This document shows, in pieces, positions 1 through 20,501 of a DNA stretch of 23,908 nt. The notes under the pieces are model-generated. The model searched no databases. It was given only the letters and a program-made list of their open reading frames with translations, and was not told where the DNA came from. A program made the translations under genes and the position numbers. Within the stretch, counting starts at the first letter, position 1. Each line of letters starts with the position of its first letter. Source of the DNA: Gemmatimonadota bacterium. Its GTDB lineage: Bacteria; Gemmatimonadota; Gemmatimonadetes; Gemmatimonadales; GWC2-71-9. Where the stretch lies: assembly GCA_003221005.1 (NCBI GenBank), contig QHTZ01000107.1, positions 1 to 23,908 on the forward strand. Direction: 5' to 3'.

Positions 1-1279
1 CGCCGAAGATCGCGAACAGGCTGCCCCCGAATAGCACGTAGTGCAGGTGCGCGACGATGAAGTAGGTGTCGTGGATGAACATGTCCAGCGGCGTCGCGGC
101 CATGAAGATCCCCGACAGCCCGCCGATCGTGAACATCGCCACGAACCCGATCGCGTTCAGCATCGGCGTGTGGAACTGGAGGTTCCCCCGCCACATCGTG
201 CCCATCCAGTTGAATACCTTGATCGCCGAAGGCACCGCGATCAAGAGCGTGGACACCATGAACGTGGAGCCCAGCGTCGGGTTCATCCCGCTCACGAACA
301 TGTGGTGGCCCCACACGATCCAGCCCAGGAAGGCGATCCCGCAGATCGCGAACACCATCGAGTGATAACCGAAGATCGGCTTGCGGCTGCCGTTCGCCAC
401 GAGATCCGAGACCATTCCCATCGCGGGGAGGATGAGGATGTACACCTCCGGGTGCCCGAAGAACCAGAACAGGTGCTGCCACAGGAGCGCCTGGCCGCCG
501 GCGCCCGGATCGAAGAAGTGCGTCCCGAGGATCTGCTCGAAGAGCAGCATGATCGCCGCCCCCGCGAGCACCGGCACCGCGAGCAGGCCGAGGATCGCCG
601 TGATGAACAGCGCCCACACGGAAAGGGGCATCCGGAACCAGGTCATCCCCGGGGCGCGGTTGTTGATCACCGTCGAGATGTAGTTCAGGGATCCGAGCAC
701 AGACGACAGACCGAAGAAGATGATCGAGATGGACCACAGCTCCTGGCCGAGCGACGAGCCGGAGAGATCGTGCCGCGCTGACAGCGGGGTGTACATCGTC
801 CAGCCCGCGCGCGCCGCCCCCTCGGGCACGAACATGCTGGCGAACATCAGAATGCCGGCCACAAACGCCGACCAGAAGGACGCCATGTTGATGCGCGGGA
901 ACGCCATGTCGTGCGCGCCGAGCTTGAGCGGGATCAGGAAGTTCGCGTACACCCCGACGAGCAGCAGCATGATGGCGAAGAACACCATGAACGTGCCGTG
1001 CATCGTCACGAGCTCGATGTAGTACTCCGGCAAGAGCACTCCACCCGAGGCCATCGTCTCCGGGAGCAGCTTGCCTAGCGGCATCGGCTGGCCCGGGAAC
1101 CCCTCCTGCCAGCGGATCTGCATCGCGAGTATCCCGCCGACCAGCAGGGAGAAGAGGCTCAGGAACAGGAATTGAATCCCGATGATCTTGTGATCGGTCG
1201 AGAACACGTACTTCCGGACGAAGCTCCGGTCGTCGTGATGCGCGTGAACGGCGTGCGCCGTCGCGGCTGCGGTACTCAT
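1..1279 (-). CDS. coxA: Cytochrome c oxidase subunit I, A1-type heme-copper oxidase (partial; 3' end outside window)
   Basis: Not in the ORF track; translated by hand from ATG at 1279, which overlaps the coxB stop (ATGA). Reads MSTAAATAHAVHAHHDDRSFVRKYVFSTDHKIIG, then TMHGTFMVFF, GAHDMAFPRIN (D-channel Asp), WQHLFWFFGHPEVYILILP, VWGHHMF (CuB), AVPSAIKVFNW (K-channel Lys) and HDTYFIVAHLHYV. Confidence 0.97.
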   Translation of the reverse strand, partial: MSTAAATAHAVHAHHDDRSFVRKYVFSTDHKIIGIQFLFLSLFSLLVGGILAMQIRWQEGFPGQPMPLGKLLPETMASGGVLLPEYYIELVTMHGTFMVFFAIMLLLVGVYANFLIPLKLGAHDMAFPRINMASFWSAFVAGILMFASMFVPEGAARAGWTMYTPLSARHDLSGSSLGQELWSISIIFFGLSSVLGSLNYISTVINNRAPGMTWFRMPLSVWALFITAILGLLAVPVLAGAAIMLLFEQILGTHFFDPGAGGQALLWQHLFWFFGHPEVYILILPAMGMVSDLVANGSRKPIFGYHSMVFAICGIAFLGWIVWGHHMFVSGMNPTLGSTFMVSTLLIAVPSAIKVFNWMGTMWRGNLQFHTPMLNAIGFVAMFTIGGLSGIFMAATPLDMFIHDTYFIVAHLHYVLFGGSLFAIFG

Positions 1280-2025
1280 GACGTGGATGCCCCTTTCGCC
1301 TTGGCGGCCTCCTGCTGCAGCCAAGCATCGTATTCGGCTTGCGTGTGGACGAACACCCGTGCCCGCATCTTGTAGTGGCTCATGCCACACAGCTGCGAGC
1401 AGCCGACCTCGTAAGTGCCGGGAACCGTGGCCTCAAACCACACCCTGATGTTCATGCCCGGGACGGCGTCCTGCCGCACCCGGAACTGCGGCACGTAGAA
1501 GGAGTGGATGACATCCTCCGACGTCAGCATCACGACGACCGGCCGCCCCACCGGCACGTGCAGCTGGTTGCGGATGACGATGTCGTCCTGGGCCGCCGGG
1601 TCACTCCGGTCCAGCCCTGTCGGGTTCACGGTTTCCTGGATCAATTCCGGGGAGACGCGGCCGAGCTTGCCGTCGGCGCCCGGATAGGTGAACCACCACT
1701 CGAACTGCTTCGCGTGCACGCCGATCGGGTAGGCGTTCGCCGGCACACTGTTGCGGCCCTTGATCTTGACCCAGAGGCCGTTGCTCGTGAGTCCCAGAAT
1801 CACCATCGTGACCGCCGGGATGGCCGTCCAGATCACCTCCGCACGGGTATTCCCGTGCGTGTAGAAGGCCTTGCGCCCCGGGCGGTTCCGGTAAGCGATC
1901 ACGAAGTAGACGAGCCCCACCTCGACCAACACGAACGTGATCCCGGTGATGATGAGGATCGCCGTGAACATCCAGTCGATGGGCGCCGCGAACGTCGAGG
2001 CCTGCGGTGGCAGCCACCAGGTCAT
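1276..2025 (-). CDS. coxB: Cytochrome c oxidase subunit II (CuA), no fused cytochrome c
   Basis: Two N-terminal TM helices, EVIWTAIP, QFEWWFTYP, DVIHSF, and CuA motif CSQLCGMSHYKM. Confidence 0.96.
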   Translation of the reverse strand: MTWWLPPQASTFAAPIDWMFTAILIITGITFVLVEVGLVYFVIAYRNRPGRKAFYTHGNTRAEVIWTAIPAVTMVILGLTSNGLWVKIKGRNSVPANAYPIGVHAKQFEWWFTYPGADGKLGRVSPELIQETVNPTGLDRSDPAAQDDIVIRNQLHVPVGRPVVVMLTSEDVIHSFYVPQFRVRQDAVPGMNIRVWFEATVPGTYEVGCSQLCGMSHYKMRARVFVHTQAEYDAWLQQEAAKAKGASTS

Positions 2026-2038
2026 GGAGCGTCTCCCT

Positions 2039-2770
2039 CTATTTCGCCGTGAAGGTCAAGTCCGCCGTCTTCGTCTCCGCCGCCTTCACCGTCACCGTCG
2101 CCGTCTGCGTGCCGTACTTCTCATGCCACGCCTCGATCGTATACGTCCCCGGGGGAAGGCCCTTGATGCTGTAGCTGCCGTCCGTGCCGGTCGCAGAATA
2201 GAAGGGATGCGATAGCACGCCGGCAAAGGCGTGCATCCACCCGTGCACGTTGCACGCGAACGGCAGCATCACCTCGACCGCCGCAAATCCCGGCCGGTTG
2301 GTGGTCATGGTCGTGGGCTGGCTGATGTTGAACGGCCGGTTCTTCTTGCCCAGCGCCTTGATGTTGTGGAGGATCCCGTCGCTGTTCTTGATCGCGAGCG
2401 TCTGGCCGACCATGATCCCAAACACCCTGGGATGGTACATGCAGCCGTTCTGATCGATCTCCACGGGGGTGGCGGGCGTCGGGTACTTGGCGTCGGCCGG
2501 GAGCCCCGTCTTCACGTACACGAACACGTTTGCCAGCGTGCCGTTGGCGTTGACCTGGACGATGAGCTCGCGGGGCGGCGTGGTGTACTTCGCCGCGCAC
2601 TTGGCCTCCTCGCTCATGTCGATGACCGGGTTCGCCGGCGCCTTGCCGACGAACTTTACTTTCCCCGTCACCGTGGCGCCGTCGAGCGCGGCCTCCGCGC
2701 CCGGGGTGCTCCCCAAGGCCCACACCAGGAGACCAGCCCCGATCGCCGCCGCCGAACCGAGTTTACGCAT
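2039..2770 (-). CDS. Exported cupredoxin-like protein with C-terminal carboxypeptidase-regulatory-like beta-sandwich
   Basis: Signal peptide ending near AEAA; type-1-copper-like ligands NSDGILHN...CNVHGWM; C-terminal TDGSYSIKGLPPGTYTIEAWHE. SD GGAGG upstream. Confidence 0.8.
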   Translation of the reverse strand: MRKLGSAAAIGAGLLVWALGSTPGAEAALDGATVTGKVKFVGKAPANPVIDMSEEAKCAAKYTTPPRELIVQVNANGTLANVFVYVKTGLPADAKYPTPATPVEIDQNGCMYHPRVFGIMVGQTLAIKNSDGILHNIKALGKKNRPFNISQPTTMTTNRPGFAAVEVMLPFACNVHGWMHAFAGVLSHPFYSATGTDGSYSIKGLPPGTYTIEAWHEKYGTQTATVTVKAAETKTADLTFTAK

Positions 2771-2823
2771 CGTCCCTCCTCAGAGAGGATTCCCGCCCGG
2801 ACGGAACTTCCGGCCGGTGCCGC

Positions 2824-4395
2824 TTACCCTCGCGCCGCAGCCCGCCTGCCGTCACGGCGCTGCGCCCGCACCACCACCAGCATCCCCAGCCCCAAGGTCA
2901 CCACCATCGCGATCACCGGAGAGATGAAGGTCCCGGGCGGCGTCGGCTGGTCCAGGGCGAGGAAGTACCAGGTACTCAGCGCCATCCGCGTATCGCGCTC
3001 CGCGCTCGAGCCGTCCCACGCGAAGAACGCCACGGGGATGGCCCGGCCCACGGCGAACTGAAGTTCGTTCGCCGTATCGGCGGTCGCAAGGGTACGGGTG
3101 AAGACCACCCGCCACTGGCCGTGGTCCCACACCGCCCGCGCCGCCGGTCCGCTCGCGGGCGGCAGGGTGTCGAAGCGGTCGATTCCCCGGGCGAGGCCCG
3201 CCACTGCGCCCCGCGGCGCGCTGCGCCAGCGCCACTGGTAGACGGACCCCGAGTTCGACCCCATCAGGAAGTACGGCCGCTCCATCCCCTCGGGGATCTT
3301 CGGCGGAAACTGCACGGCCAGCTGATCGGGCCACGGCGCTAGGGTCTGCGGCCCCGAATCGTCGCTCGCCATCGTCTGGAGCAGTCGCCGCGTGTACTTG
3401 TTCCATCCTGTATCCGGGCTCTGCGAGCGGTCGTCCCAGGTGAGCCGCACCGCGATCGCGTTGCCGTTGTGCAGCGCCTGCACCCAGATCGCCGCCACCG
3501 CGGGCGCGAACCAACGCGGCTTGCGGATGATCTGGCCAACGAGCGGGAAGTAGTAGTCATCCACGCGGCTCCAGGCGGAGTCGTCTGGGGACACGGGCAG
3601 CGTGCCCGCGATCTGGCGCGCGTGAATCACATCCCGCACCTCGGGCGCCTTGGGCGGCGACAGGCTGCGCACGTACTGCGCCACCCGCCACAGTTGCTCC
3701 TCGGTGAGGAACTTCTGGTCGAGCAGGTCGGAGAACGACGGCATCGGCGTGCCGTCGAGCCCGGTCCGCAGCTGGCGGTAAATGTCTTCCGCCGTCGCGC
3801 CGCCGCGGAAGCGCCAGTTTTCGTGGAGGTCGGCTGCCAAGATCGGCTGCCCGGGATCGTCCTTGAGATCGGGGGCCGAGGGCCCATCGCCGCGCCCCTG
3901 GGGGCCGTGACACTTATAGCAATGGATCGAATCGTAGAACTGCCGCCCGACCCGGAGGGCTTCGGCACCCGTGCCACCGCCCGGCTCGCTCGAGAACTTG
4001 AGCAGCTGCGGGTGCTGGCTCGTGTCGCTGAAAAAAGACGAGAACGTCTTGAGGTACGCCATCACGTTGCGGCGCTCGCCGTCCGAGAGCCGCGTCTGCC
4101 ACGCGGGCATGGCGGTGCCGGGGAGCCCTTCGTCGATGGCGCGCATGAGGTCCGCGTCCGTGGGGAGCTGGCCGCTCGCAGTGGTGCGGATCTTGTAAAC
4201 TGCGCCGGTGAAGTCGCGGGGCCGCGGCAGCATGTACAGCGCGGCCACGCCCTTGCCGTCCCCGGTCTCCCCGTGGCAGCCGGCGCACCATTTCACATAG
4301 ACGGTCTTGCCGGCGGTGGTGTCTTGGGCGGACAGTCGCACAGTCGGACTGACGGACAGAAACACCGCCAGCGCGCCTATCAGTCCGACCCTCAT
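2824..4395 (-). CDS. Diheme cytochrome c fused to an ethylbenzene dehydrogenase gamma-like (EbdC/DOMON-type) heme b domain, with C-terminal TM anchor
   Basis: Start moved to ATG 4395 (MRVGLIG signal peptide, ATGA overlap). CAGCH...GLPGTAMP and CYKCH...GLDGTPMP; then RLTWDD, DQLAVQFP, YFLMG, WRVVFTR, AFFAWDG...ER...STWY; terminal TM helix. Confidence 0.85.
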   Translation of the reverse strand: MRVGLIGALAVFLSVSPTVRLSAQDTTAGKTVYVKWCAGCHGETGDGKGVAALYMLPRPRDFTGAVYKIRTTASGQLPTDADLMRAIDEGLPGTAMPAWQTRLSDGERRNVMAYLKTFSSFFSDTSQHPQLLKFSSEPGGGTGAEALRVGRQFYDSIHCYKCHGPQGRGDGPSAPDLKDDPGQPILAADLHENWRFRGGATAEDIYRQLRTGLDGTPMPSFSDLLDQKFLTEEQLWRVAQYVRSLSPPKAPEVRDVIHARQIAGTLPVSPDDSAWSRVDDYYFPLVGQIIRKPRWFAPAVAAIWVQALHNGNAIAVRLTWDDRSQSPDTGWNKYTRRLLQTMASDDSGPQTLAPWPDQLAVQFPPKIPEGMERPYFLMGSNSGSVYQWRWRSAPRGAVAGLARGIDRFDTLPPASGPAARAVWDHGQWRVVFTRTLATADTANELQFAVGRAIPVAFFAWDGSSAERDTRMALSTWYFLALDQPTPPGTFISPVIAMVVTLGLGMLVVVRAQRRDGRRAAARG

Positions 4396-5192
4396 TTCGC
4401 ACCGCCTTCGGCCTTCTCCCACGTCCGCGGCTTCCACCCGGTCTGATCGTACAGGAATAGGATCACCGCCCAGATCTGGCGCTCCGTGAGGAAGTCTTCC
4501 CAGCGCGGCATCGCCGAGTTCCAGGGCGTGCCCTCACGCGGCAGACCGGGCCCGCCCTTCGCAACCCGCCAGAAGACGAAGCTCTCGGTGAGCTGGGCGA
4601 TGGTCCCATTGTCCTGGAAGTTGGCTGGCAGCGGATTGAAACCGGCCGCGAAGTGTCCCAGACCATCCAAGTGATCCCCGTGACAGGGCAGGCAGTTCTG
4701 GTAGTAGATCTCCTTGCCGTAGGCCGTAAACGCGGCGAGCGACTCGGGCTGCTGGCGCAGCGGATTCTCGAGCCCGGTGAGCGTCATTGTCTTGCCGCGG
4801 AACGTGACCTCGGCGGGCGGCGCCGGATGGATCGAACGCAGGTTGGGGGGCGCCGCGACCGTCGTGCGCACCTGCCCGAACGTGACCCAGCCGACGAGCA
4901 GCGTGACGACCGCGAGCACCAGGATGCGCACGAGCCGCAGTCGCTGCTCGACCAGCATCGCCACGAGCGGCTGCTTGAAGAGCGCCCAGCGCTCATCGTT
5001 GTCGCTCACGTAAATCAGCACGCCGACTAGCACCGTGACCATGTACTGCAGCACGACGCTGCTCGGAACGAGCGAGCTGCCTGGCAGCAATGGCACCCCG
5101 TAGACGATGACGAGATACGCCAGCACCAGCAGCCCCAGGGCCTGCCAGAAGGGGTGGTCCAGGTAGCGCCGGAGGTTGGGCGAACGCGTCAT
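4392..5192 (-). CDS. Membrane-anchored monoheme cytochrome c (three N-terminal TM helices)
   Basis: Three hydrophobic segments, then CLPCH and distal Met in WNSAMP; coupled to both neighbours. Confidence 0.88.
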   Translation of the reverse strand: MTRSPNLRRYLDHPFWQALGLLVLAYLVIVYGVPLLPGSSLVPSSVVLQYMVTVLVGVLIYVSDNDERWALFKQPLVAMLVEQRLRLVRILVLAVVTLLVGWVTFGQVRTTVAAPPNLRSIHPAPPAEVTFRGKTMTLTGLENPLRQQPESLAAFTAYGKEIYYQNCLPCHGDHLDGLGHFAAGFNPLPANFQDNGTIAQLTESFVFWRVAKGGPGLPREGTPWNSAMPRWEDFLTERQIWAVILFLYDQTGWKPRTWEKAEGGAK

Positions 5193-6001
5193 TTGTGCCC
5201 CGCGAGGTATTGTACCAGCGCGTCGAGCTGGGCCGGGCTCATCATCGTCGCGAAGTTCTTCGGCATCACGCCGGCAAGGTTCTCAAAACCCTTCGTGATC
5301 GACGATCCCGGATCCACGATCTTCTGCCGGATCGACTGGGCGTCACGGCGCGAGCCGACGTGGGTCAGGTCGGGCGCCAGGGCTCCCCCCTGGCCGTCGA
5401 GCATGTGGCAGTTGACGCACCCGGCCTCTTTGATGATTGCCTTGGGATCGCTGCTCCCATGGGCGAAACCGCCACCCCCGCCACCCCCGCCACCCCCTGC
5501 CGCAGCGGCCCCTCCCCCGCCGGCCGGCGCCGCCTTCTGGATGTCGGCCCCCGTCACGTCCACCGTGCCCCCCTGCGACTCGAGGAACGCGATCACGGCC
5601 CAGACCTGGTCGGGCGGGATCAGCTTCGTAACCTGCGGCATGATGGGCTGGTAGCCAGCCACGACGTACGCCGTAGGCTGATCGAGGGACTCGTAGAGGT
5701 ACTGCTTGCAGCTCTTCCCCGGCTCGCGCTTGGCGCAGCGTTGGCCGATCGGCCCTGTTCCCTTCTCGTCCGTGAGCAGGTTCGGGGCGCGGGTGCCGAG
5801 GCCGTGACAGGCGACGCAGCCGCCGATGCCGTTGAACACCTTCTCCCCGGCGGCCACCAACTGCTCCGGCGTCGCGTTGGGACCGAGCGTGAGCTTCTGC
5901 GGCACTTCGGACTGCATCTGCGGGATCTTGTTGCAGATGACCGTATACACAAACAGCGTGCCGAGGACGATGCCGACGACCTTGAGGTTAGTGGCCCACA
6001 T
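5189..6001 (-). CDS. Membrane-anchored diheme cytochrome c with Gly/Ala-rich linker
   Basis: N-terminal TM; CVACH...PIMP; poly-Gly linker; CVNCH...APDLTHVG...GVMP. Confidence 0.9.
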   Translation of the reverse strand: MWATNLKVVGIVLGTLFVYTVICNKIPQMQSEVPQKLTLGPNATPEQLVAAGEKVFNGIGGCVACHGLGTRAPNLLTDEKGTGPIGQRCAKREPGKSCKQYLYESLDQPTAYVVAGYQPIMPQVTKLIPPDQVWAVIAFLESQGGTVDVTGADIQKAAPAGGGGAAAAGGGGGGGGGGFAHGSSDPKAIIKEAGCVNCHMLDGQGGALAPDLTHVGSRRDAQSIRQKIVDPGSSITKGFENLAGVMPKNFATMMSPAQLDALVQYLAGHK

Positions 6002-7700
6002 GCCGGCCTCCGCCCTCGCCTGACGACACGAACGTCGACTTCTCGGCGAGCCCGCCGAGCCAGAAGACGAACGCCACGAGACCGAGGAAGATCAGCACAC
6101 ACAGGCTGATCATCTGCGACGCGTACCCGAGCGCCGGGGTCGCGGCGTACTTGCTCGTGTCCTCCATCACCTGCCACACGTGCCAGTACTGGCGGATCCC
6201 GGAGCGGGCAAAGCCCATGAGTCCCATGAGCCAGGTGAACGTCACCGCGAGGATGAAGAGCGCATACTGGGAGCGCGGCGGCATCTTGCCCCACTGGATC
6301 TCCCCCACGGACTTAGCGCCCCGCGCCATGAGGACGTCGATCACGGTGACGAACAGGATGCAGCTCAACACGGCGAGCACCTGGTAGACGCTGAATCCGA
6401 TGCGCACGATCGCTTCGACGAAGTAACCCCGGATCCCGTAGAACAGCACGATCCCGGCCGCGATGACGAACATCGCCGTCTGGATGCGCGTCCCCGTCTC
6501 CGCCCAAGGGACGACGAGCTCCTTGTTGCCGCGCCGGTACATGAGGAACGACAGGAACGTGGTCAGGATCATCAGATTGACCGCCGTGTTCTTGGCGCTC
6601 ATGACGCCGAGGGCGCCGAGCAGCGGGTGGTGTGAGCCACCCATAGCGGCGAGCTCCTTCGAGTCCGCGATCATGGTGTGCGGCGTGCCCCACACGATCG
6701 CGCCCAGCACGAGGACCGTTAGCAGGTACTTGATGTAGGGGCGGAACCGTTCAGCGCCGGGGATGCGCCCCATGCCGATCCACAGGTAGTAGTTGCCGGC
6801 GAGGAACAGGACGGCGATGAGGAACGCCTGGATCACCCACAGCCAGCTCATGAAGCCGCCCATCATGGTGATCCCCATCGACTGGTCGTACTGGTACACC
6901 TCGCGGCCCAGCCAGTAGCCAGCGAAGGGCAGCACGATCAACGCGGAGATCGCGATGAAGTTGCCGACGTAGCCCATCCAGTCGTAGTGGGCGCGCTCCT
7001 CGTCGTTTTGGGCGGCGAGGAAGCGGTAGCTCGCGTACGCCGCGACAATGGCGCCGCCGAACACGACGTTCGCGATGAGCCGATGGACGTTAATCGGCAT
7101 CCAGGTGGCATTGGCGATGGCGTGCCACAGCTTGATGCTGCTCGGGTCCGTGGTGGAAGTGATGTCGCGCGGCGGCGTCATCATGTACGTCAGCCACGAG
7201 TTGGCGATCAGCATCACGATCGTGCCCCAGACGTTCAGCAGGATGCCGAGGGTCCAGTGGACCAGCTTGGCGCGACCGTACTTCCAGCGGTCCCACCCGT
7301 AGTAATAGAGGTAGAGGGTGAAGGATTCGAAGAAGAACAGTCCGGCGTACACCCACATGGAGGCCGCGAACACGGCCGTCAGGTACGCCCAGAACCGCGG
7401 GTACAGGGTTGCCAAGAAGAAGACGAGGATCGCCCCCCAGATCGCGGTCGCGCTGTAGGCCACGAGCAGCAGGCGGGTAAACTCCTTCGCGAGCCGGTCG
7501 TAGCGGGCTTCCTTGCCGAAGATCCCGATGGCCTCCGCCACCACGGCGAACATCGGCACGCCGAGCACGAAGGCGGCGAACATGAGGTGCACTTCCGCGG
7601 CGATCCAGACCGCCGCGCGGGCGCCGATGATGGGGAACTCGCCGTAGGCGCGCACGCTGTCGGCGGCGGCGGCAGTGAGGAAAAACAGACCGTCGGCCAT
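5988..7700 (-). CDS. Non-canonical cytochrome bd subunit I-like (CydA-like, 'bd-like') membrane oxidoreductase
   Basis: Polytopic membrane protein with CydA hallmarks: AEVHLMF (helix I His), FFFESFTLYLYYYGWDR, ANSWLTYMMTP, NVHRLIA (b558-type His) and IRQYW (variant of GRQPW). No recognisable Q-loop. Confidence 0.85.
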   Translation of the reverse strand: MADGLFFLTAAAADSVRAYGEFPIIGARAAVWIAAEVHLMFAAFVLGVPMFAVVAEAIGIFGKEARYDRLAKEFTRLLLVAYSATAIWGAILVFFLATLYPRFWAYLTAVFAASMWVYAGLFFFESFTLYLYYYGWDRWKYGRAKLVHWTLGILLNVWGTIVMLIANSWLTYMMTPPRDITSTTDPSSIKLWHAIANATWMPINVHRLIANVVFGGAIVAAYASYRFLAAQNDEERAHYDWMGYVGNFIAISALIVLPFAGYWLGREVYQYDQSMGITMMGGFMSWLWVIQAFLIAVLFLAGNYYLWIGMGRIPGAERFRPYIKYLLTVLVLGAIVWGTPHTMIADSKELAAMGGSHHPLLGALGVMSAKNTAVNLMILTTFLSFLMYRRGNKELVVPWAETGTRIQTAMFVIAAGIVLFYGIRGYFVEAIVRIGFSVYQVLAVLSCILFVTVIDVLMARGAKSVGEIQWGKMPPRSQYALFILAVTFTWLMGLMGFARSGIRQYWHVWQVMEDTSKYAATPALGYASQMISLCVLIFLGLVAFVFWLGGLAEKSTFVSSGEGGGRHVGH

Positions 7701-8977
7701 CAGCCGTCAGCCTCAGTGAAGAACGGCCGTCGCTTCGAGAAATCGACCGGTAGCGCGCTCCGAACCTCGGACAAGAGCTCCAGGGTCACCTCGCGCCCGC
7801 CGTGCCGTCGGGCGTACTCCTCCACGCGCTGCATCACCACGCCGCGTACGAACGAGGGAATCCGCTCGAGGCGCGCGAGCGCCGCGGGGCTCCAGCCGAG
7901 CGCCCGCCGGAACTCGGCGCCGTACGTCACGGCGCGCTGCGGCTCCACCAGCGGGGCGCCGACCCGCGGCTCGTAGGTGCACGACGGGTCGGCGGCGAGC
8001 ACGTCGCCGGTCGTGGCGAACGCCCGCGCCCGGCACCCGCCGCACAGCGCGCGGTACTCGCACACACCGCACTTGCCGCCGAGCGTTCCCTCGCGCAGCT
8101 GGCGGAACAGGGGGGCCTCGCGCCAGATCTCGCCGAACGACTGCCGGGATAGATCGCCCGCGACCTCCGGCAGGTAGGGGCAGGGCGTGAGCTTGCCGTC
8201 GGGCGTGATGCGGCAGTACTGCGTGCCGCACGGGCAGCGCGTCTCGTAATTGAGCACCGGCGACTCGGGATCGGCCGCGTGCACGTGCCGCATGAAGTGC
8301 GGCGCGCACTTGGAGCGCACGAGCATGGTCCCGCGGTAGTCGCGCTGCCAGCGCGCCAGGTCGGCGAGCACTGCTTCATACTCCGCCGGGGGAAGGTCGG
8401 AGAGCCCGGCGCCGCGCCCGGTCGGCACCAGGAAATAGCAGTTGAACGCCACGGCCCCTTGCTCGGCGGACCAGGCAACGAGGCGCTCGAGCTCGGCGCG
8501 GTTGCCCTTGGTCGCCGTGGTCTGGATGATGAAATCCAGGCGCCGCTCCCGGAGCCGGGCGAGCGCGCCCTGCGTGTCGGCGAGCGAGCCCCGACCGTGC
8601 CGGAAGTTGTCATGATAGGACGGGCGCAGCGAATCCACGCTTACCGCGACGCCGCGCACGCCCGCGTCCTGCAGCGCCGCGATCCGGACGTCGGTGAGCA
8701 AGGTGCCATTCGTCCCGACGACGACCGTGGCACCACGCTCGGAGGCATAGCGCGCGATCTCCGTCAGGTCCTCCCGGAGCAGCGGCTCGCCGCCCGACAG
8801 GATCAGGAGCGGGGCGGGGTTCTCCGCCAGGAGCTCGTCCACGATGCGCCGGCAGGTCGCCGTGTCGAGCTCGGCGGTGGCGCGCTCGCCGGGTCCCGCC
8901 GAGATGTAACAGTGAGCGCACTCGAGGTTGCAGCGCCGAGTGAGATTCCACGCGACGACGTGGGGCACGTAGCTCAC
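7700..8977 (-). CDS. Radical SAM/SPASM protein, AhbD/NirJ-like, with C-terminal PCP_red-like domain
   Basis: WNLTRRCNLECAHCY, SGGEPLLR, KCAPHF, SPASM cysteines CPCG...PCPY...CGVC...CGGC...DPSC; tail WSPAALARLERIPSFVRGVVMQRVEEYA...VT. Confidence 0.88.
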   Translation of the reverse strand: MSYVPHVVAWNLTRRCNLECAHCYISAGPGERATAELDTATCRRIVDELLAENPAPLLILSGGEPLLREDLTEIARYASERGATVVVGTNGTLLTDVRIAALQDAGVRGVAVSVDSLRPSYHDNFRHGRGSLADTQGALARLRERRLDFIIQTTATKGNRAELERLVAWSAEQGAVAFNCYFLVPTGRGAGLSDLPPAEYEAVLADLARWQRDYRGTMLVRSKCAPHFMRHVHAADPESPVLNYETRCPCGTQYCRITPDGKLTPCPYLPEVAGDLSRQSFGEIWREAPLFRQLREGTLGGKCGVCEYRALCGGCRARAFATTGDVLAADPSCTYEPRVGAPLVEPQRAVTYGAEFRRALGWSPAALARLERIPSFVRGVVMQRVEEYARRHGGREVTLELLSEVRSALPVDFSKRRPFFTEADG

Positions 8978-8978
8978 G

Positions 8979-10961
8979 TCAGTCGCCTGCCTGCTCCCGC
9001 AACAGCCGCTCCACAGCCTCCTTCGCCTGTTCGGGCTTCACCCCTTTGAAGTCCACGGGGCACTTGCCCATCTTCTCCTCGATATCGCGGATCGGGCAGC
9101 GCGTGATCCCTTGCGCCTTCGCGTCTTCGATGAACGCGCGCATCTCGGGAGTCAACCCGTCCCGTCCTTCGGCTTCGGCGCGGATCTGCTTCGCGCGCAA
9201 CTCGGTGAACATCACCATCATCGTCTCGACGTCGAACTCGTCCGCCTCGATCATCTGCTGCTTGTTGTCGTCCATCACGCGGGTGGTGACGCGCCAGATG
9301 TCGTGGTTGCGGGCAAAGCGCTCCACGGTGTTGCGCGCGAGGGGCCGAGCCACGAGCGGGACGAGCTGCAGGCGCTGCCACGCCTCTTCGGTCCAGACGA
9401 TGGGATCGGTCGCGACGCGCGGCCGGCGGCTCACGGTGCCCGTCACGGGACACTTCGTCTCCACCTCGGCCGCGACCGGCTCGGCGTCCGAGTCGTGACC
9501 CTGGATCTTGGTCACCTTCAGCTGCTCCGTCGCCTTCACCTCCGCGAGCGCGATCTCTTCCGCCGTCCCGATCCCCATGATGAGCTGCATGTGGGTCGGC
9601 AGCAGCTTCCGGATCGCCTCGTCGAGCCACTTGTTGGTGACCGTCGCCTCAGCGCCGCCGGTCTGCTCCAGCACGTACTCCTCCACGGCGCGGCGCGCGA
9701 TCCCCTGCGCGAACGGGGGGACGCGGAGGATGCGCACTTCCGCCTCGGGCGCCCACGGCATCCCCGCCTGGCCGTCCTCCTCGATCCAGGGGATGTCTTC
9801 GGGACGGATCCCCACCGTCCCGGTGAGCAGCGTGTTGCAGGGGGCGATCCGCACCAGGTTTTCAGCCTGGGACCCGAGGTCCGTGCCCTCGATGCGATGG
9901 GCCCCGTGCCGCGCCAGCACGAGCAGCGACGGCTTGATCTCCTCGGCCCACTGCATGATCACCTGGAACGGCTTGCCGATCAGGATCTGCGTCTTGATGG
10001 GGACGTCCGGAAATTCCTGGGCCATCACCTCGGCGCGCTTCAGGTTCGCCTGGCAGAGCTTCAGCAGCCCCTTGTCGATGATGTTGTTGTGCAGCTCTTC
10101 CTGCTCCTCGAACTTGAAGACTTTGGACGCCTGGTACGACAACACGTCCTTGATGTTGTGGAACACCACATGGTGGTACTCCACGTCGAACGCGCTGCAG
10201 ACGTAGAGGGATGCGCCGAACGTCTGGGCCAGCTCGAGCGCGGCGCGCATCGCCTTGTAGCTGTAGGAGGAGCCGTCCACGCACACCAAATAGCGGCCGT
10301 CCGCAAGCGGCCGGTCGTCGCGGACGATCAGCACGTCCTTCTCGACCTCGCGCAGCACGCGCGCCACCACTCCGCCGAGCTGCGAGAACGGCTGCCGCCC
10401 GAGCCCGTGCGCGCCGATCGCCAGCAGGTCGTACTGCCGGCCCGAGGATCCCACGAGCCGCGCCGCCGAATCCTCGTCCTCCGCGATCAGCCGCCCGTTG
10501 GCGCCGACCTGCACGTCGCCGCGCACTTTGTCGCCGCCGTCGTACCCCGCGGCGCGATTGGGATCGAAGCCGATCAAGCCGGGAAGCCGGCCGGCGCCGC
10601 GGTTCACCTCGTTCACGATCTCTTCGTAGTTGATTCCCTCGAGCAGCTGGCGCGTCAACGGCACCCCGGCTTCCTCGCAGTGCTTCCCGAGCCGGTCGAG
10701 GAAGCTGTCCGCGATCAGCTGGAGGCCCTTCTCGATGAGCTTGTCGTGGATCTTGCGCTGTTTCTTGATCTCTTCGGCGGTCTGGAACCGCGCGGGCAGG
10801 CCGGTCTCGAGCTGGCGAAAGCGGACGTCGTGCAGGCGGGCCGCATACACGTGGTTGCCGATGATGCGGCCGTGCGACACGCGACACAACTCGATCGCCC
10901 GGTCGACGGCCCAATCCGAATGCTGCGAATTGTCGACGGGGGCGAAGATCTCGCGGTACAC
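8979..10961 (-). CDS. Tandem universal stress protein domains plus two PCP_red-like domains and a CP-motif tail
   Basis: Start reassigned to GTG 10961 (MYREIFAPVDNS, SD GAGGT). USP1 DLLAIGAHG...LGG; USP2 YLVCVDGS...LLVLARHG...LGS; two PCP_red-like repeats (WAPEAEVRILRVP, WTEEAWQRLQLVP). Confidence 0.85.
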   Translation of the reverse strand: MYREIFAPVDNSQHSDWAVDRAIELCRVSHGRIIGNHVYAARLHDVRFRQLETGLPARFQTAEEIKKQRKIHDKLIEKGLQLIADSFLDRLGKHCEEAGVPLTRQLLEGINYEEIVNEVNRGAGRLPGLIGFDPNRAAGYDGGDKVRGDVQVGANGRLIAEDEDSAARLVGSSGRQYDLLAIGAHGLGRQPFSQLGGVVARVLREVEKDVLIVRDDRPLADGRYLVCVDGSSYSYKAMRAALELAQTFGASLYVCSAFDVEYHHVVFHNIKDVLSYQASKVFKFEEQEELHNNIIDKGLLKLCQANLKRAEVMAQEFPDVPIKTQILIGKPFQVIMQWAEEIKPSLLVLARHGAHRIEGTDLGSQAENLVRIAPCNTLLTGTVGIRPEDIPWIEEDGQAGMPWAPEAEVRILRVPPFAQGIARRAVEEYVLEQTGGAEATVTNKWLDEAIRKLLPTHMQLIMGIGTAEEIALAEVKATEQLKVTKIQGHDSDAEPVAAEVETKCPVTGTVSRRPRVATDPIVWTEEAWQRLQLVPLVARPLARNTVERFARNHDIWRVTTRVMDDNKQQMIEADEFDVETMMVMFTELRAKQIRAEAEGRDGLTPEMRAFIEDAKAQGITRCPIRDIEEKMGKCPVDFKGVKPEQAKEAVERLLREQAGD

Positions 10962-11118
10962 CGGCACCTCGGACGCTAGGGTGCATGCCGGGCACACACC
11001 AATATCTCCCCGAGCCTGGATCGGGTTCGGTCCTATCGAGATAACGCCTGGTGTTATGCTCGGCCGCAGCGGCCGTCAGGCCGCCGCACGATTATCGAGT
11101 CTCGCTTACGCGCCGGCG

Positions 11119-11147
11119 AGTATGGCCAGCGCGGCGGGGCCTGTCAA
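11119..11147 (-). promoter_or_regulatory. Sigma70-type promoter for the USP-to-cox operon
   Basis: Minus strand TTGACA (11147-11142), 17-nt spacer, CATACT (11124-11119). Confidence 0.75.
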
Positions 11148-11150
11148 GTC

Positions 11151-11408
11151 TTAAATCCCGACTCTACTCGGGACAATTTGTCGGCCGGTTTCGTCCCACA
11201 CCGTGATGGCGTCGACGGGGCAAGCATCGCAGGCGCGCAGCAACCGCTCCCGCTCCACTGCCTCCGGCTCGACGAACGCGGCGATCGAGTCTTCGTCCAA
11301 CTTGAAACCCTCTGGCGCGTCCTTCACGCAATCGCCGAACCCGACGCACTGGTCGCGGTCGATGACGACGCGCAGACCATGGACGACCCGCTCCACGAGG
11401 CGACTCAC
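11151..11408 (-). CDS. Monocluster ferredoxin, probably [3Fe-4S]
   Basis: GTG 11408 overlaps the upstream stop (GTGA); 85 aa; IDRDQCVGFGDC...ACDACPVDAI, with the second Cys of CxxCxxC replaced by Phe. Confidence 0.88.
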   Translation of the reverse strand: MSRLVERVVHGLRVVIDRDQCVGFGDCVKDAPEGFKLDEDSIAAFVEPEAVERERLLRACDACPVDAITVWDETGRQIVPSRVGI

Positions 11409-11857
11409 ATCCCCTCGAGACCGAGCTCCGCGCGGGCGGTATCCATGACCGCGGGCGTGATTTCGGCGATGCCGTGGTCCTTGGCGTACTCGGCGTAGAT
11501 CTTCTTCACCATTCCCCGCACGAAGCCCGGCACCTGCGACAGGCGCTGCTGCGCCTCCGCGGACCAGCTGGGGCCAGCGGTCCGCGCCTCCGCCCGCCCG
11601 CTCGCTTCGTCGAACGCGTCCGGTCGCCCGCCGGCGACGTTGCCGCGCACGGTCTCGAGCGGCTGCGCCGGCACGGTCCGCCCGCCGATCACGACGCCCA
11701 AGGAGCTCACGAGCTGCGTCTCGAATGGGTTGGTGAGGAGAGCCGTCACCCGGCCGCAGCTCGGGCACTTGAAGGCCGCGGCAAGAGTTCCGTCTCCCGG
11801 GAGCTGGCGCTCCTCGAACACCATCTGCCGGTCGCACTCGACGCAGAGAAATTTCAT
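11405..11857 (-). CDS. Zn-ribbon (CxxC...CxxC) plus PCP_red-like domain protein
   Basis: ATG 11857 overlaps the mrp stop; MKFLCVECD...FKCPSCG; C-terminal WSAEAQQRLSQVPGFVRGMVKKIYAEYAKDHGIAEITPAVMD. Confidence 0.8.
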   Translation of the reverse strand: MKFLCVECDRQMVFEERQLPGDGTLAAAFKCPSCGRVTALLTNPFETQLVSSLGVVIGGRTVPAQPLETVRGNVAGGRPDAFDEASGRAEARTAGPSWSAEAQQRLSQVPGFVRGMVKKIYAEYAKDHGIAEITPAVMDTARAELGLEGM

Positions 11858-12636
11858 AGGCGCGCGGCGAGCGTCTCCCAGACACCGACCGGGGGGTGAA
11901 ATGGGACGCGCGCCAGCACCGGGACCCCAAACTCCCGCGCGAGGACCTCGGCCGCGTCGCCGCGGAACTGATCCCCCATCATGTTCTCCACGACGCCGAG
12001 AGGGGTCGCGCCCCGTTCCATCGCCGCGCGCAATGCGCGCCGCACGGCGTCGCGCGACTCGGGGGTCGGGATGGTCACGGTCAGCACGGCCGGAGGGCGG
12101 TCGAGCAGGTCCGCGAGCTCCTCGAAGCGCGACAGCCCGGGCGGCAGGTCGACCAGCAGCAGATCGAGTGACCCCCAGGCCACGTCGGCGAGGAACTCGC
12201 GCAGCGCGGCGGCCTCCAGCGCGCCGCGCCACACGAAGCGGTCAGCGGCGGGGCCCCGAAACGCCAGGGGGCGGCCGTCCTCGAGCAGCAGGTCCATGGA
12301 AACAAGCCGCACGCCGTCCGCGCCCGTAGCCGGCAGCACCGCGTCTTCCTCGACGACCAGCGAGGCCCGCCCCGCATCGAGCAATCCCGCTGCGGTGGGC
12401 CCGTTCAAGTCGGCGTCGAGCACGCCGACCGCCCGCCCTCCCCGCGCGACCGCGCGTGCCAGGTGCGCCGTGACGAAGCTCTTTCCGACACCCCCTTTGC
12501 CGCTCATGACGGCGACCACGCGGCCCACCTGAGCGAGGCGCGCGGCCACGCGGTGGCGCTGCGCGCCGATCTGCGCCGGGAGGCCCGACGCGTCGGGCTC
12601 CGTCAGGTCTCGATACGTCCGGATGTTGAGTGGCAC
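11854..12636 (-). CDS. Mrp/ApbC/NBP35-family P-loop ATPase, cysteine-free variant
   Basis: Deviant Walker A SGKGGVGKS, DADLNGP, VWRG, WGSLDLLLVDLPPG, GVVENM. Confidence 0.88.
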   Translation of the reverse strand: MPLNIRTYRDLTEPDASGLPAQIGAQRHRVAARLAQVGRVVAVMSGKGGVGKSFVTAHLARAVARGGRAVGVLDADLNGPTAAGLLDAGRASLVVEEDAVLPATGADGVRLVSMDLLLEDGRPLAFRGPAADRFVWRGALEAAALREFLADVAWGSLDLLLVDLPPGLSRFEELADLLDRPPAVLTVTIPTPESRDAVRRALRAAMERGATPLGVVENMMGDQFRGDAAEVLAREFGVPVLARVPFHPPVGVWETLAARL

Positions 12637-12642
12637 AATCGC

Positions 12643-12650
12643 AGTATAAT
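12643..12650. promoter_or_regulatory. Overlapping divergent -10 elements (mrp and greA)
   Basis: AGTATAAT gives TATAAT on + (12645-12650) and TATACT on - (12648-12643), the latter 6 nt from the mrp GTG; lies in a 37-bp intergenic gap. Confidence 0.55.
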
Positions 12651-12673
12651 GCCTAGCTTCTCACGCGGACGCT

Positions 12674-13174
12674 ATGATCGACGAACTCAGGAACAAGCTG
12701 CAGGCCGAGGTCGAGCGGTTGAACCACGAGATCAACTTCGTCCTGCCACGGGAAATCGAAAAGGCGCGCGCGCATGGCGACCTGCGCGAGAACTCCGAGT
12801 ACAAAGCGGCGCTCGAGCGGCAGCAGTTCTCGCAGGCCCGCCTGTCTCATCTCCGCGGGCGCCTGTCCAAGCTGTCCACCGTTTCGGAGCACGATATCCC
12901 GCGTGACCGCGTGGGGTTCGGGTCCCGCGTCACCGTGCGGGACCTCGACACGAAGAAGAAGGAAACGTACGCCCTCACCTTGGGCGAGTTCATCGAAGGC
13001 GGCGAGGAGGACGGGGACGAGATTCCGGTGTCGATCGCGTCACCCCTCGGCAAGGGCCTGCTGGGGTGCAAGCGGGGGCAGACCGTGAGCCTCGCCCTGC
13101 CGGTGGGGAAGCGGCGCCTCAAGATTGTGCAGGTGCTCACGGTGCACGATTTGGCGGCCGGAGCCCCTGAGTGA
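12674..13174 (+). CDS. greA: GreA/GreB family transcription elongation factor
   Basis: ARAHGDLRENSEY with both acidic residues; VGFGSRVTV; SIASPLGKGLLG. Confidence 0.92.
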   Translation: MIDELRNKLQAEVERLNHEINFVLPREIEKARAHGDLRENSEYKAALERQQFSQARLSHLRGRLSKLSTVSEHDIPRDRVGFGSRVTVRDLDTKKKETYALTLGEFIEGGEEDGDEIPVSIASPLGKGLLGCKRGQTVSLALPVGKRRLKIVQVLTVHDLAAGAPE

Positions 13175-13298
13175 GCGCCTACCGCCTGACCCTGCCCACT
13201 TGACGAAGCCATTGTAAAGTGCCACATACGTTTGAGGTATAAGCCCGGCGCAACCCTAGGCGCGCCGGTACGTTGTGGTCACAGAGCGCGGAGGCCGA

Positions 13299-14120
13299 AT
13301 GGCGTGGCGCACCGAGGCTGAAGAAGAGCGTTTTTCGTTTACGCCGTTCACGCGGCATCCCTTCTTCACCGAGGTGAATCGCTGGATCGTCGAGCGCGTC
13401 ATCTGCCCCAGCCGCCGTACGATCGTAGACCTGGGCTGTGGGCCGGGGGCCGTGACCCAGCTGATCGTTGACCGCTTGAGTCAGTGCGGCGAGGGCCGGG
13501 TCATCGGGATTGACCCGTCGGCATCGGCGCTCGAGAAGGCGCGGCGCGCGATCCGGTCGCGCGTCGCGGAGTTCGTGGAGGGGAGCGCGGAATGGCTGTC
13601 GCGCCTGGTCCCCTCGGCCGATGCGGTCATCTTCTGTAACGCCATCCACCTCGTCCCCGACAAAGCCAAAGTCATCGCCGAGATCCGCAAAGTCCTGAAG
13701 CGCGGCGGTGTGCTCGCGTTCAATACGACGTTCTTCAACGGCGCCTACGTCGAAGGGACGACCGGCTTCTGGCGCCGCTGGGTGGTGCGCGCCGTGCAGG
13801 TGCTGCGCGAGCACGGCATCGCGGTGCAGCACGAGGGCAAGGCCACAGCTCGGTCGTTCCTCTCGGCCGACGAGTACGCCACCTTGTGCGAGCACGAGGG
13901 GTTCAGCCCGCCCACGGTCGAGCTGGTGCGAGTCGAGATGACCCCCGAGAGCCTGGAGGACATCGGACGCTTCTCCCTGTTCATCGAGGGCGCCTTGCCG
14001 GGCGTCCCGCTCGAGCAGGGGGCGGAGGCGCTGCGCGAGGGCTTACGGCGCGCGCTCGACGAGACCGGGTTCAGCACGGTACCGCGCAACTGGCTTGAGT
14101 GTGTAGCCGTCGCGTCCTGA
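13299..14120 (+). CDS. Class I SAM-dependent methyltransferase
   Basis: SD GGAGG (13290-13294) then ATG 13299; motif I IVDLGCGPG, IGIDPS, VLKRGGVLAF. Confidence 0.88.
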   Translation: MAWRTEAEEERFSFTPFTRHPFFTEVNRWIVERVICPSRRTIVDLGCGPGAVTQLIVDRLSQCGEGRVIGIDPSASALEKARRAIRSRVAEFVEGSAEWLSRLVPSADAVIFCNAIHLVPDKAKVIAEIRKVLKRGGVLAFNTTFFNGAYVEGTTGFWRRWVVRAVQVLREHGIAVQHEGKATARSFLSADEYATLCEHEGFSPPTVELVRVEMTPESLEDIGRFSLFIEGALPGVPLEQGAEALREGLRRALDETGFSTVPRNWLECVAVAS

Positions 14121-14123
14121 GCA

Positions 14124-15404: not shown

Positions 15405-15413
15405 GCCGCGGCC

Positions 15414-16019: not shown

Positions 16020-16023
16020 GAAA

Positions 16024-18283: not shown

Positions 18284-18301
18284 AGGGAGCGGAATCTACC
18301 C

Positions 18302-18342
18302 AAAAAAACATCGCGCCGGACCGTTGCGACTGGCCCGGCGCG
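18302..18342 (-). terminator. Intrinsic terminator of the ECF operon
   Basis: Minus strand CGCGCCGGGCC-loop-GGTCCGGCGCG followed by ATG and T7. Confidence 0.7.
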
Positions 18343-18385
18343 TTACGCGTGAACCATTCCCTCAGACCGCCCTATGGTTCCCGCG

Positions 18386-20258: not shown

Positions 20259-20501
20259 CGTTGCCACCTCACCCGCGGGAGATCGGCGCCACACTGCGGG
20301 CCCGCTGCGGGGCTCGCCACGCCGCTCCCGGATCCTAGGTGCGCGGTAGGGCTCCGGCAACCTCGTCACAGCGTAAAGACTCACGCCGCCCAGTGGCGGT
20401 AACGCTCGGCGCCACCGCCACTTCCGCTGGCGGCCGTTACCGTGGAGGCTCCCCCGGTCTGACGCTTCCCACACGACAAGGCGGTGCTACGTTCCAGCGC
20501 G

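Follow-up and report, generated by a model that had tools for sequence, protein, structure and literature searches.

A cytochrome bd-like module encoded with a blue copper protein, an aa3 oxidase and a radical SAM/PCP_red cassette in Gemmatimonadota

The locus described here lies on contig QHTZ01000107.1 of a soil Gemmatimonadota bacterium (GCA_003221005.1). The window, the whole stretch of 23,908 nucleotides that was analyzed, is that entire contig (C22 in our numbering), and it belongs to a 2.79-Mb genome in 141 contigs that is 93.9% complete. Its G+C content is 64–73% and its proteins have their nearest relatives among entries labelled Gemmatimonadales. Twelve co-oriented genes, most of them overlapping, occupy positions 2–12636 on the minus strand. 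They encode a membrane protein related to CydA of cytochrome bd (the CydA-like protein), three membrane-anchored c-type cytochromes, a cupredoxin and subunits II and I of an aa3-type oxidase, preceded by a cassette of Mrp, ferredoxin, universal stress protein (USP), radical S-adenosylmethionine (SAM) and PCP_red-domain genes. In order of transcription, the genes and one promoter-like sequence are:

11854..12636, minus strand: Mrp/NUBPL-type P-loop iron–sulfur cluster carrier (PF10609, 150.9 bits; start codon uncertain)
11405..11857, minus strand: 150-aa protein with a CxxC..CxxC zinc-ribbon-like part and a C-terminal PCP_red domain (PF08369, 55.3 bits)
11151..11408, minus strand: single-cluster 4Fe-4S ferredoxin, 85 aa (PF13370, 47.2 bits)
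11119..11147, minus strand: sigma-70-like promoter match TTGACA-17-CATACT, a sequence pattern in the 153-nt gap before the USP gene
8979..10997, minus strand: tandem USP protein with two PCP_red domains, 672 aa (PF00582, 105 bits, three stretches; PF08369, two stretches)
7700..8977, minus strand: AhbD/NirJ-like radical SAM/SPASM protein with a PCP_red domain, 425 aa (PF04055, PF13186, PF08369)
5988..7700, minus strand: CydA-like (bd-like, OR-N type) membrane heme protein, 570 aa (PF01654, 68.7 bits)
5189..6001, minus strand: diheme cytochrome c with one N-terminal membrane helix (PF00034 and PF13442, two stretches each)
4392..5192, minus strand: monoheme cytochrome c with three N-terminal membrane helices (PF13442)
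2824..4395, minus strand: signal peptide, diheme cytochrome c, EB_dh domain (NxrC/EbdC-like) and C-terminal anchor (PF00034, PF13442, PF09459)
2039..2770, minus strand: secreted type-1-copper cupredoxin with a C-terminal CarboxypepD_reg (Ig-like) domain (PF13620; ligand conservation and fold match)
1276..2025, minus strand: CoxB with a CuA site and no fused cytochrome c (TIGR02866, 156.7 bits)
2..1279, minus strand: CoxA (A-family), cut by the contig end (PF00115, 405.8 bits)

At most junctions in the block the start codon overlaps the stop of the gene before; thus the start of the small zinc-ribbon/PCP_red gene overlaps the Mrp stop, and the GTG start of the ferredoxin gene overlaps the stop of that small gene in turn. 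Only two gaps interrupt the block, of 153 nt (11151/10997) and 53 nt (2824/2770), the other junctions being overlapping or tight. The 53-nt gap before the cupredoxin gene holds a GAGGAGG ribosome site, and the sigma-70-like match in the longer gap is the sole one in 13.3 kb, which is weak on its own because 1.2 are expected by chance. A scan for terminator-like hairpins was uninformative (5 matches against 4.9 expected), with none in either gap. An initial annotation made from the letters of the window had described twelve co-oriented, mostly overlapping genes at 1–12636, among them three anchored cytochromes with five CxxCH motifs. The gene set and the motif count agree with our analysis, in which the small PCP_red gene at 11857–11405 is additionally named; the proposed extent does not hold at the coxA end. 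Contig C56 (3853 bases), colinear with positions 17903–21701 of the related locus L015 at 84–89% amino-acid identity, encodes the C-terminus of CoxA, CoxC (PF00510), a UbiA-family protein taken as CtaB and a ChdC–Rieske fusion. On this alignment the block would seem to run on from the window into C56, with about 200 bases apparently missing between C22 and C56. The fusion, a chlorite-dismutase-family (ChdC/HemQ-like) protein with a C-terminal Rieske [2Fe-2S] domain, follows CtaB at C56:269–1354 (locus L010) and at L015:20424–21509, and carries the sole Rieske domain found in the genome.

Conservation of the block was assessed by a locus scan of one genome per species, which yielded at least 600 pattern-matching stretches, 570 of them confirmed; the best 80 were examined. 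By record title, the source of the taxon labels of these metagenome-assembled genomes (MAGs), 64 of the 80 loci are from Gemmatimonadota, 11 from Methylomirabilota/NC10/Rokubacteria, two from Chloroflexi and one from Myxococcota, and two are unlabelled. Gene order was scored by tblastn with the window proteins, and the denominators given are loci with enough sequence. The four core genes, encoding the CydA-like protein and the three cytochromes, were colinear in 58 of 58 assessable loci, and colinearity extended through cupredoxin, CoxB and CoxA in 52 of 55, drawn from Gemmatimonadota, Methylomirabilota/Rokubacteria and one Chloroflexi-labelled MAG. Linkage of the bd-like gene to coxBA across phyla, which the initial annotation had set as a test of its reading, was therefore borne out. 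The three exceptions were L061 (no cupredoxin match, cox divergent), the NC10 locus L074 (neither cupredoxin nor cox matches) and the Myxococcota locus L085 (two modules and cupredoxin, no cox). In a sample of the phylum, the CydA-like gene was found in 85 of 301 genomes and 42 of 127 genera; the 301-genome counts include G182, which is flagged unpublished, and the count of ActC given below also includes G057 and G097. The block is a unit kept together across phyla and not by chance, which we regard as solid, and it is one co-inherited, probably co-transcribed respiratory unit.

Two of the exceptional loci have features of their own. The Myxococcota-labelled MAG at L085 has divergent module copies at 3412–9460 (minus strand) and 10001–15504 (plus strand), each with a cupredoxin-like gene, no coxBA match in the examined stretch and a radical SAM copy near the contig end. 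Downstream of the module in L074 (NC10 CSP1-5), where cox is absent, genes for a small soluble cytochrome c and a periplasmic binding protein occupy positions 16490–17500 together with that of a beta-propeller protein, which in part matches the Cytochrom_D1 heme domain.

The CydA-like protein scores 68.7 bits with PF01654, well over the cut-off of 26.2, and has no match among the NCBIfam models. It aligns to solved CydA over residues 21–270 only, and to the canonical CydA of its own genome (contig C120) over residues 33–282. Seven of its residues are 98–100% conserved in 81 sequences: His38, Glu125, His148 and His206, which we take to be the counterparts of E. coli His19, Glu107, His126 and His186, and likewise His358, Lys370 and His507. 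The heme ligands of CydA are presumably His19, His186, Met393 and Glu445 (E. coli numbering). A weak, non-significant local alignment places the GRQPW region at residues 501–509, with His507 beside it. The protein has about 13–14 helices (13 segments in a crude hydropathy scan, 13 long helices in an AF2 model with pLDDT 72) and no CxxCH. Foldseek searches with this model returned CydA chains at E values of 7e-8 to 3e-5 and CydB more weakly, with no NrfD-, cytochrome b- or NarI-like fold and no known quinone-binding fold among the matches. No periplasmic Q-loop with quinol-binding residues was found, the alignments to solved and canonical CydA stopping at residues 205–282, and no CydB-like gene is present among the 12 genes of the block, where the neighbours are cytochromes c. 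Compared with canonical CydAB, the first 4–6 helices align and the His19, Glu107, His126 and His186 counterparts are kept, whereas the Q-loop and the CydB gene are missing, the helices number 13–14, the partners are c-type cytochromes, and His358 and His507 are extra invariant residues. The absence of a quinol site and of CxxCH in the CydA homolog, together with an operon containing alternative electron donors, places the protein in the OR-N family of the bd superfamily as defined by Murali et al. 2021 (10.1101/2021.01.16.426971), of which N1 and N2 are described, in the part of that work consulted, as having 14 helices. All quinol-binding residues are likewise given as absent from 14-helix bd-like proteins in the consulted part of Lucker 2013 (PMC3578206). 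The nearest Atlas clusters of the CydA-like protein are mostly from Nitrospirota, which we treat as a lead only. As judged from residue conservation, the protein most likely binds b-type hemes at the His38, His206 and His507 sites, and the retention of the His19, Glu107, His126 and His186 counterparts suits a catalytic heme site no less than it suits a quinol:cytochrome c function.

The five CxxCH motifs of the block are distributed over the three cytochromes, with those of the first diheme protein at residues 62 and 195 and that of the monoheme protein, which has three hydrophobic segments, at residue 167. The third cytochrome, for which an alternative start exists at 4437, combines two homologies: its diheme part matches 6h5l_B (E 1e-74; 6H5L is a Kuenenia HAO-type structure), and its C-terminal EB_dh part matches NxrC (7b04_C, 7e-19) and EbdC (2ivf_C, 1.7e-15), with 94.5 bits for TIGR03477, under the cut-off of 169.85. 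We take Met108 and Lys201 of EbdC to be the axial heme b ligands. The aligned columns hold Met378 and Met471 in the window protein and, among 65 sequences, Met in 44 and Gly in 15 at the first position and Gly in 28 and Met in 22 at the second. These ligand columns vary, and heme b binding by the EB_dh domain is therefore not a conserved feature; of the heme b domain first proposed here, the homology stands and the ligands do not.

That the three cytochromes belong to the CydA-like protein is solid. In addition to the constant gene order, four relatives (P0048, P0121, P0125 and P0135) have the diheme cytochrome fused to the CydA-like protein as C-terminal cytochrome c domains. In three loci the monoheme and diheme/EB_dh cytochromes form a single open reading frame with three CxxCH and no internal stop, at L074:12473–14653, L087:12568–14835 and L091:12552–14807. 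Multimer prediction, one of the checks proposed with the initial annotation, gave the CydA-like protein and the monoheme cytochrome a score of 0.74 against 0.00 for the best control. Among solved complexes, 58 of 80 attain the mark used, as do 2 of 110 mismatched pairs; these counts hold only roughly because the alignments were self-made. Contact agreement between runs was at least 65% and the pLDDT of the partner at least 78. The modelled interface comprises, on the CydA-like side, the loop around His358 and the stretch 503–506 beside His507 and, on the cytochrome side, the stretch of the invariant Arg119 and His122. The models thus support binding of the monoheme cytochrome to the CydA-like protein.

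The blue copper protein and the aa3 oxidase, which has no cytochrome c of its own, are also a solid part of the unit. His135, Cys173, His176 and Met179 of the cupredoxin are invariant in 20 of 20 aligned orthologues, and its AF2 model (pLDDT 90.5) matches amicyanin, pseudoazurin, plastocyanin and Cupredoxin_1 in Foldseek searches of the PDB. What had been called cupredoxin-like on first reading is, by predicted fold and ligand pattern, a type 1 copper protein, and copper binding is predicted. The fold and the His/Cys/His/Met pattern are those of small blue copper proteins; unlike these, the block cupredoxin additionally carries a CarboxypepD_reg domain at its C-terminus and has a further two invariant cysteines (C58 and C110), and its gene lies within an oxidase operon. 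CoxB scores above the TIGR02866 cut-off (156.7 against 147.7 bits), carries the CuA motif without a cytochrome c domain and is the sole COX2 match in the genome (one PF00116 match). CoxA contains GHPEV, the helix VI glutamate motif that we take as the mark of A1-type enzymes; its best match is TIGR02891, with a score that is low only because the gene is cut.

A module-linked COX1 was present in five of five complete carrier genomes. The idea that this is the only A-type oxidase of the carriers was rejected, as three of the five have a second strong COX1. In the genome of the window, the N-terminal part of a second COX1-family gene lies at a contig end (C83:9–431), with no COX2 gene upstream. 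In the Rokubacteria loci L098 (12218–12613) and L099 (1683–2318), a second cupredoxin/CarboxypepD_reg-like gene with 26–28% identity adjoins the USP gene of the cassette.

The radical SAM protein of the cassette gives full-length alignments with the NirJ2 (292.6 bits) and AhbD (290.5 bits) models, but neither score reaches the equivalog cut-off of 500, so that by sequence its membership can be taken to hold only for the wider radical SAM/SPASM tetrapyrrole group. It has CxxxCxxC, a SPASM domain and full-length alignment in common with AhbD and NirJ/NirJ2 and differs from AhbD/NirJ2 in its fused C-terminal PCP_red domain and its strict tie to one respiratory module. The block contains four PCP_red domains. 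Of the smaller cassette proteins, Mrp has MrpORP as its top NCBIfam model (141.7 bits, under the cut-off of 450), and the zinc-ribbon/PCP_red protein has an N-terminal CxxC..CxxC motif and a sub-cut-off Zn_ribbon_4 match of 16.6 bits. Orthologues of the radical SAM protein (E 1e-129 or better, 59–82% identity) were found in all 85 Gemmatimonadota genomes with the CydA-like gene and in none of the 216 without it. Other matches, at 38–50% identity, came from 11 genomes, all CydA-like-negative; ten of them cover only residues 3–340 or so, without PCP_red, and the eleventh (G052) is partial, cut at a contig end. The maturation cassette first suggested from the sequence is accordingly real and tightly tied to the module.

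Its gene order follows the phylum. In 60 of 61 Gemmatimonadota loci, no more than 800 nt separated the radical SAM gene from the CydA-like gene downstream of it; 0 of 14 other loci had this arrangement. Among assessable Gemmatimonadota loci, USP and radical SAM genes were both upstream in 45 of 45 and Mrp within 8 kb upstream in 40 of 40, and full-length tblastn matches to the small zinc-ribbon/PCP_red gene follow Mrp. The NC10 loci L074 and L079 have the order USP, radical SAM, Mrp, zinc-ribbon/PCP_red, CydA-like, with the zinc-ribbon/PCP_red match directly upstream of the CydA-like gene. Five of five examined genomes of other phyla have a radical SAM copy with PCP_red, 44–50% identical and on the same strand. 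In three Rokubacteria and the Chloroflexi-labelled genome this copy lies about 7–9 kb past coxA with USP and Mrp beside it, joined in the Chloroflexi-labelled genome by a small PCP_red gene. In the Myxococcota genome it is located at a contig end, some 17 kb beyond the CydA-like gene, and the examined stretch has no coxA match. The gene thus sits elsewhere in these loci in the same company, which argues for a functional tie to the module and not to cox. A literature search on PCP_red/PF08369 outside DPOR found nothing relevant and, as far as the literature searches reach, a tie of the bd-like module to an AhbD/NirJ-like radical SAM protein and four PCP_red domains is not in print.

The core module is of a known, uncharacterized kind, and what is new is its fixed coupling, in soil phyla rich in heterotrophs, to a cupredoxin and aa3 oxidase and to the radical SAM/PCP_red cassette. 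The statements on published systems here and below draw on the consulted parts of the papers cited. The nitrite oxidizers have a cluster of a 14-helix bd-like protein, mono- and diheme cytochromes c, an alternative NxrC, and cupredoxin-like and zinc-finger proteins (PMC3578206; PMC6606698). It is common to Kuenenia, Nitrospira and Nitrospina, and a reverse-running role like that of alternative complex III has been suggested for it (Lucker et al. 2013, PMC3578206); in N. moscoviensis it ranks in the top 40 genes by transcription (Mundinger et al. 2019, PMC6606698). A preprint on Manganitrophaceae names the set TO_1 and treats it as a terminal oxidase (10.1101/2021.11.15.468770), and a Nitrospinota paper calls the function still unconfirmed (PMC10839748). 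The likeness to Nitrospirota and anammox modules noted at first was right (PMC3578206; PMC6606698; 10.1101/2021.11.15.468770). The consulted part of Degli Esposti 2021 contains nothing on this block, and no paper on it was found in the literature on bd-like proteins of Gemmatimonadota, Rokubacteria, Methylomirabilis, Longimicrobia and Palauibacter, where supplements may list OR-N genes.

The window combines, in one cluster, the bd-like protein, diheme and monoheme cytochromes c and an alternative NxrC-like protein that define the module associated with nitrite oxidoreductase (NXR). With the NXR-associated module of Nitrospira, Nitrospina and Kuenenia (bd-like_3, TO_1), the core shares gene content, about 14 helices, the absence of a Q-loop, an alternative NxrC-like protein of about 57–60 kDa and nearby cupredoxin-like and zinc-finger proteins. 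It differs from that module in being joined to cupredoxin–coxBA(C)–ctaB instead of nxrABC, in the radical SAM/PCP_red cassette that accompanies it here, and in its hosts, which are Gemmatimonadota, Methylomirabilota/Rokubacteria and a Chloroflexi-labelled MAG. No linkage to nxrABC was found, and no type II DMSO reductase alpha subunit scored above cut-off in the genome. A second point of comparison is provided by the ACIII–aa3 (alternative complex III) and actinobacterial bcc–aa3 pairs, in which the genes of aa3 adjoin those of a membrane complex that binds c hemes, and no soluble carrier is needed. The block likewise places a membrane complex with bound c hemes beside aa3, without homology to ActC/ActF or to cytochrome b/Rieske and with the real ACIII on another contig.

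That ACIII is encoded on contig C70, with a five-CxxCH ActA, a 1104-aa ActB, an NrfD-type ActC and a monoheme ActE; none of ActA–F is in the window. The genome yielded no cytochrome b and no bc1-type Rieske protein, and a canonical CydA is encoded elsewhere, on contig C120. A genome check for bc1 and ACIII, called for in the initial annotation, therefore found the second and not the first. Within the phylum sample, ActC was detected in 289 of 301 genomes, and of the 85 module carriers 84 have it, the exception being G185 (94% complete). The module carriers of other phyla had ActC in five of five cases and cytochrome b in three of five. Among the 85 and 5 genomes no carrier without any complex III candidate was found except G185, and the module was accordingly never seen standing in for a missing complex III. 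No NxrA/EbdA-type subunit is encoded in the genome, the best TIGR03479 match reaching 41.9 bits against a cut-off of 984.75. A 1195-aa molybdopterin-enzyme frame with one in-frame TGA and an NrfD-type gene nearby was observed at C14:13192–14397 and 17025–17882; a selenocysteine enzyme and a second Psr/ACIII-like complex are both possible readings. The Chloroflexi-labelled MAG has a cytochrome b gene on the module's own contig (G304 C55:16373–16912, locus L100), about 6 kb beyond the radical SAM gene and on the opposite strand.

We favor, at a little below even probability, a reading of the block as a cytochrome c/copper hub on a cytochrome c-oxidizing OR-N protein that also feeds aa3. The core membrane complex would consist of the CydA-like OR-N/TO_1-type protein and the three anchored cytochromes with their five hemes c; the periplasmic type-1-copper cupredoxin and an aa3 (A1) oxidase with no cytochrome c domain in its subunit II would form further layers. 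ACIII or another periplasmic donor would pass electrons to the cytochrome c hub, from which two paths may lead. On one, the heme site of the CydA-like protein would reduce O2, with protons supplied via a Glu125/His148 path, as a cytochrome c-oxidizing bd-type oxidase; on the other, the cupredoxin would deliver electrons to CuA of the proton-pumping aa3 oxidase. We infer that the second path is likely, because CoxB has no cytochrome c domain and is the sole COX2 match, and the cupredoxin ligands are invariant and its fold confirmed. O2 reduction at the CydA-like site has nearly an even chance of being correct and is favored because the heme and proton-path residues are conserved, the field needs an oxidase for Nitrospira and the examined carriers have ACIII to feed the hub. 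The AhbD/NirJ-like enzyme, with the ferredoxin as reductant, Mrp as iron–sulfur cluster supplier and the PCP_red proteins as helpers, would mature or supply a tetrapyrrole cofactor needed by the core complex, while CtaB and the ChdC–Rieske fusion at the far end would supply heme o/a and heme b.

Several points weigh against this reading. An invariant Tyr118 occupies the position of E. coli Glu99 and Geobacillus Glu101, and the counterparts of Met393 and Glu445 were not confidently aligned. The radical SAM scores of about 290 are far under the AhbD and NirJ2 cut-offs of 500. Two terminal oxidases in one operon would be unusual, and we know of no precedent. Co-occurrence within a phylum is largely block inheritance, related genomes not being independent, and the examined loci are the best 80 of 570, 64 of them from Gemmatimonadota. 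No OR-N protein has a known biochemical function (10.1101/2021.01.16.426971; PMC10839748), and the module type occurs in strictly anaerobic anammox bacteria (PMC3578206), for which O2 reduction is unlikely as the main role.

The initial annotation had proposed a different role, in which the module may not be a terminal oxidase and may instead act as an electron-input or complex III-like unit in a supercomplex with the A1 oxidase. The CydA-like/cytochrome complex would oxidize quinol at a new site and pass electrons through the c hemes and the cupredoxin to aa3, forming a self-contained quinol-to-O2 branch, possibly as an obligate supercomplex; in nitrite oxidizers and anammox bacteria it would run in reverse and reduce quinone. 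A donor complex with c hemes beside aa3 is the usual complex III–IV pattern, the coxBA linkage is kept in 52 of 55 loci, and the block carries its own oxidase, heme and maturation genes, as a complete pathway would. One reading would moreover cover NXR in aerobes, NXR in anaerobic anammox bacteria and aa3 here, and it is already in print for the nitrite-oxidizer module (PMC3578206; PMC6606698). Set against this, neither a Q-loop nor quinol-binding residues are present (PMC3578206), the alignment to solved CydA stopping near residues 205–270; the model resembles CydA only, with CydB weaker and no NrfD-, cytochrome b- or NarI-like fold; and the O2-site heme and proton-path residues that are conserved would not be needed for a simple quinol:cytochrome c role. 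The module is also never the sole complex III candidate, with ACIII in 84 of 85 and five of five carriers and cytochrome b in three of those five. As first stated, the proposal is not supported, given the presence of ACIII in 84 of 85 carriers, the retention of the CydA residues and the lack of a match to a known quinone-binding fold, and we consider it a less probable, still serious alternative. We give a smaller chance to a bolder form, in which the complex represents a third type of quinol:cytochrome c (or cupredoxin) oxidoreductase, derived from bd, in an obligate supercomplex with its own aa3 and requires a new heme derivative from the radical SAM enzyme with PCP_red domains as tetrapyrrole-handling modules. 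Working in the opposite direction, such a complex would provide the connection from NXR to the quinone pool that has long been looked for in nitrite oxidizers and anammox bacteria.

It is improbable that the block is instead a branch point for a high-potential periplasmic donor (nitrite, metal or another lithotrophic substrate), with the EB_dh cytochrome or the cupredoxin collecting electrons that go downhill to aa3 while the CydA-like complex pushes a share uphill to quinone. The layout does recall the Acidithiobacillus rus operon of cytochromes c, cupredoxin and aa3. The EB_dh protein is similar to NxrC and EbdC, both of which dock as subunits to periplasmic molybdoenzymes, its diheme part matches (E 1e-74) a diheme cytochrome solved with the Kuenenia HAO-type enzyme, and for the bd-like complexes of Ca. 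Manganitrophus there are published proposals of bifurcation (10.1101/2021.11.15.468770). The 93.9% complete genome nevertheless encodes no NxrA/EbdA-type subunit, the block contains no conserved gene for a substrate-oxidizing enzyme or outer-membrane cytochrome, the EbdC heme b ligand positions are not conserved, and the flanking genes of the window are housekeeping. For the cassette, we think it rather probable that it is a dedicated tetrapyrrole step for the core complex, the radical SAM product being a heme for that complex. The alternative is a general oxygen-independent coproheme decarboxylase (AhbD) that makes housekeeping heme b and sits beside heme-rich genes by convenience. The AhbD model is among the two best matches, ChdC, the aerobic enzyme for the same step, lies with CtaB at the other end of the block, and a 2026 review, in the part consulted, describes AhbD in coproporphyrin-pathway organisms without the other AHB enzymes. 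A housekeeping enzyme should not track one module, however, and the orthologue is found in exactly the 85 positive genomes and in 0 of 216 others. It stays with the module in the Myxococcota locus, where no cox was found in the examined stretch, and in the NC10 loci, its AhbD score is far below cut-off and the PCP_red domain lies outside the AhbD model, which together make the housekeeping role unlikely.

The remainder of the window, 12674–23906, is housekeeping in content, with genes for GreA (divergent from Mrp), a methyltransferase, an ATP-grasp L-amino-acid-ligase-like protein, NifU, MetE, an ECF-type sigma factor beside an AMPK1_CBM-domain protein and an amino acid permease. Among sequencing runs, sampled words were found in 18 soil DNA runs from 15 studies (42–78% of words), with two further soil DNA runs, added by shared study, at 1–3%; two soil metatranscriptome runs contained 9% of the words, small shares that are no evidence of transcription.

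In Nitrospira and Ca. Manganitrophus, few respiratory gene sets are expressed as highly as the bd-like (OR-N, TO_1) module. The question of its function dates from 2010, with one view holding it to be a terminal oxidase and another an ACIII-like complex with reverse flow. The block shows this module outside nitrite oxidation: in at least three phyla, mostly of soil bacteria, it is locked to aa3 via a blue copper protein. In this new setting the two readings would predict different things, namely O2 consumption versus quinol:cytochrome c activity, and a different dependence on ACIII. The strict tie to the radical SAM/PCP_red cassette suggests a special tetrapyrrole step, which bears on the hemes carried by OR-N proteins.

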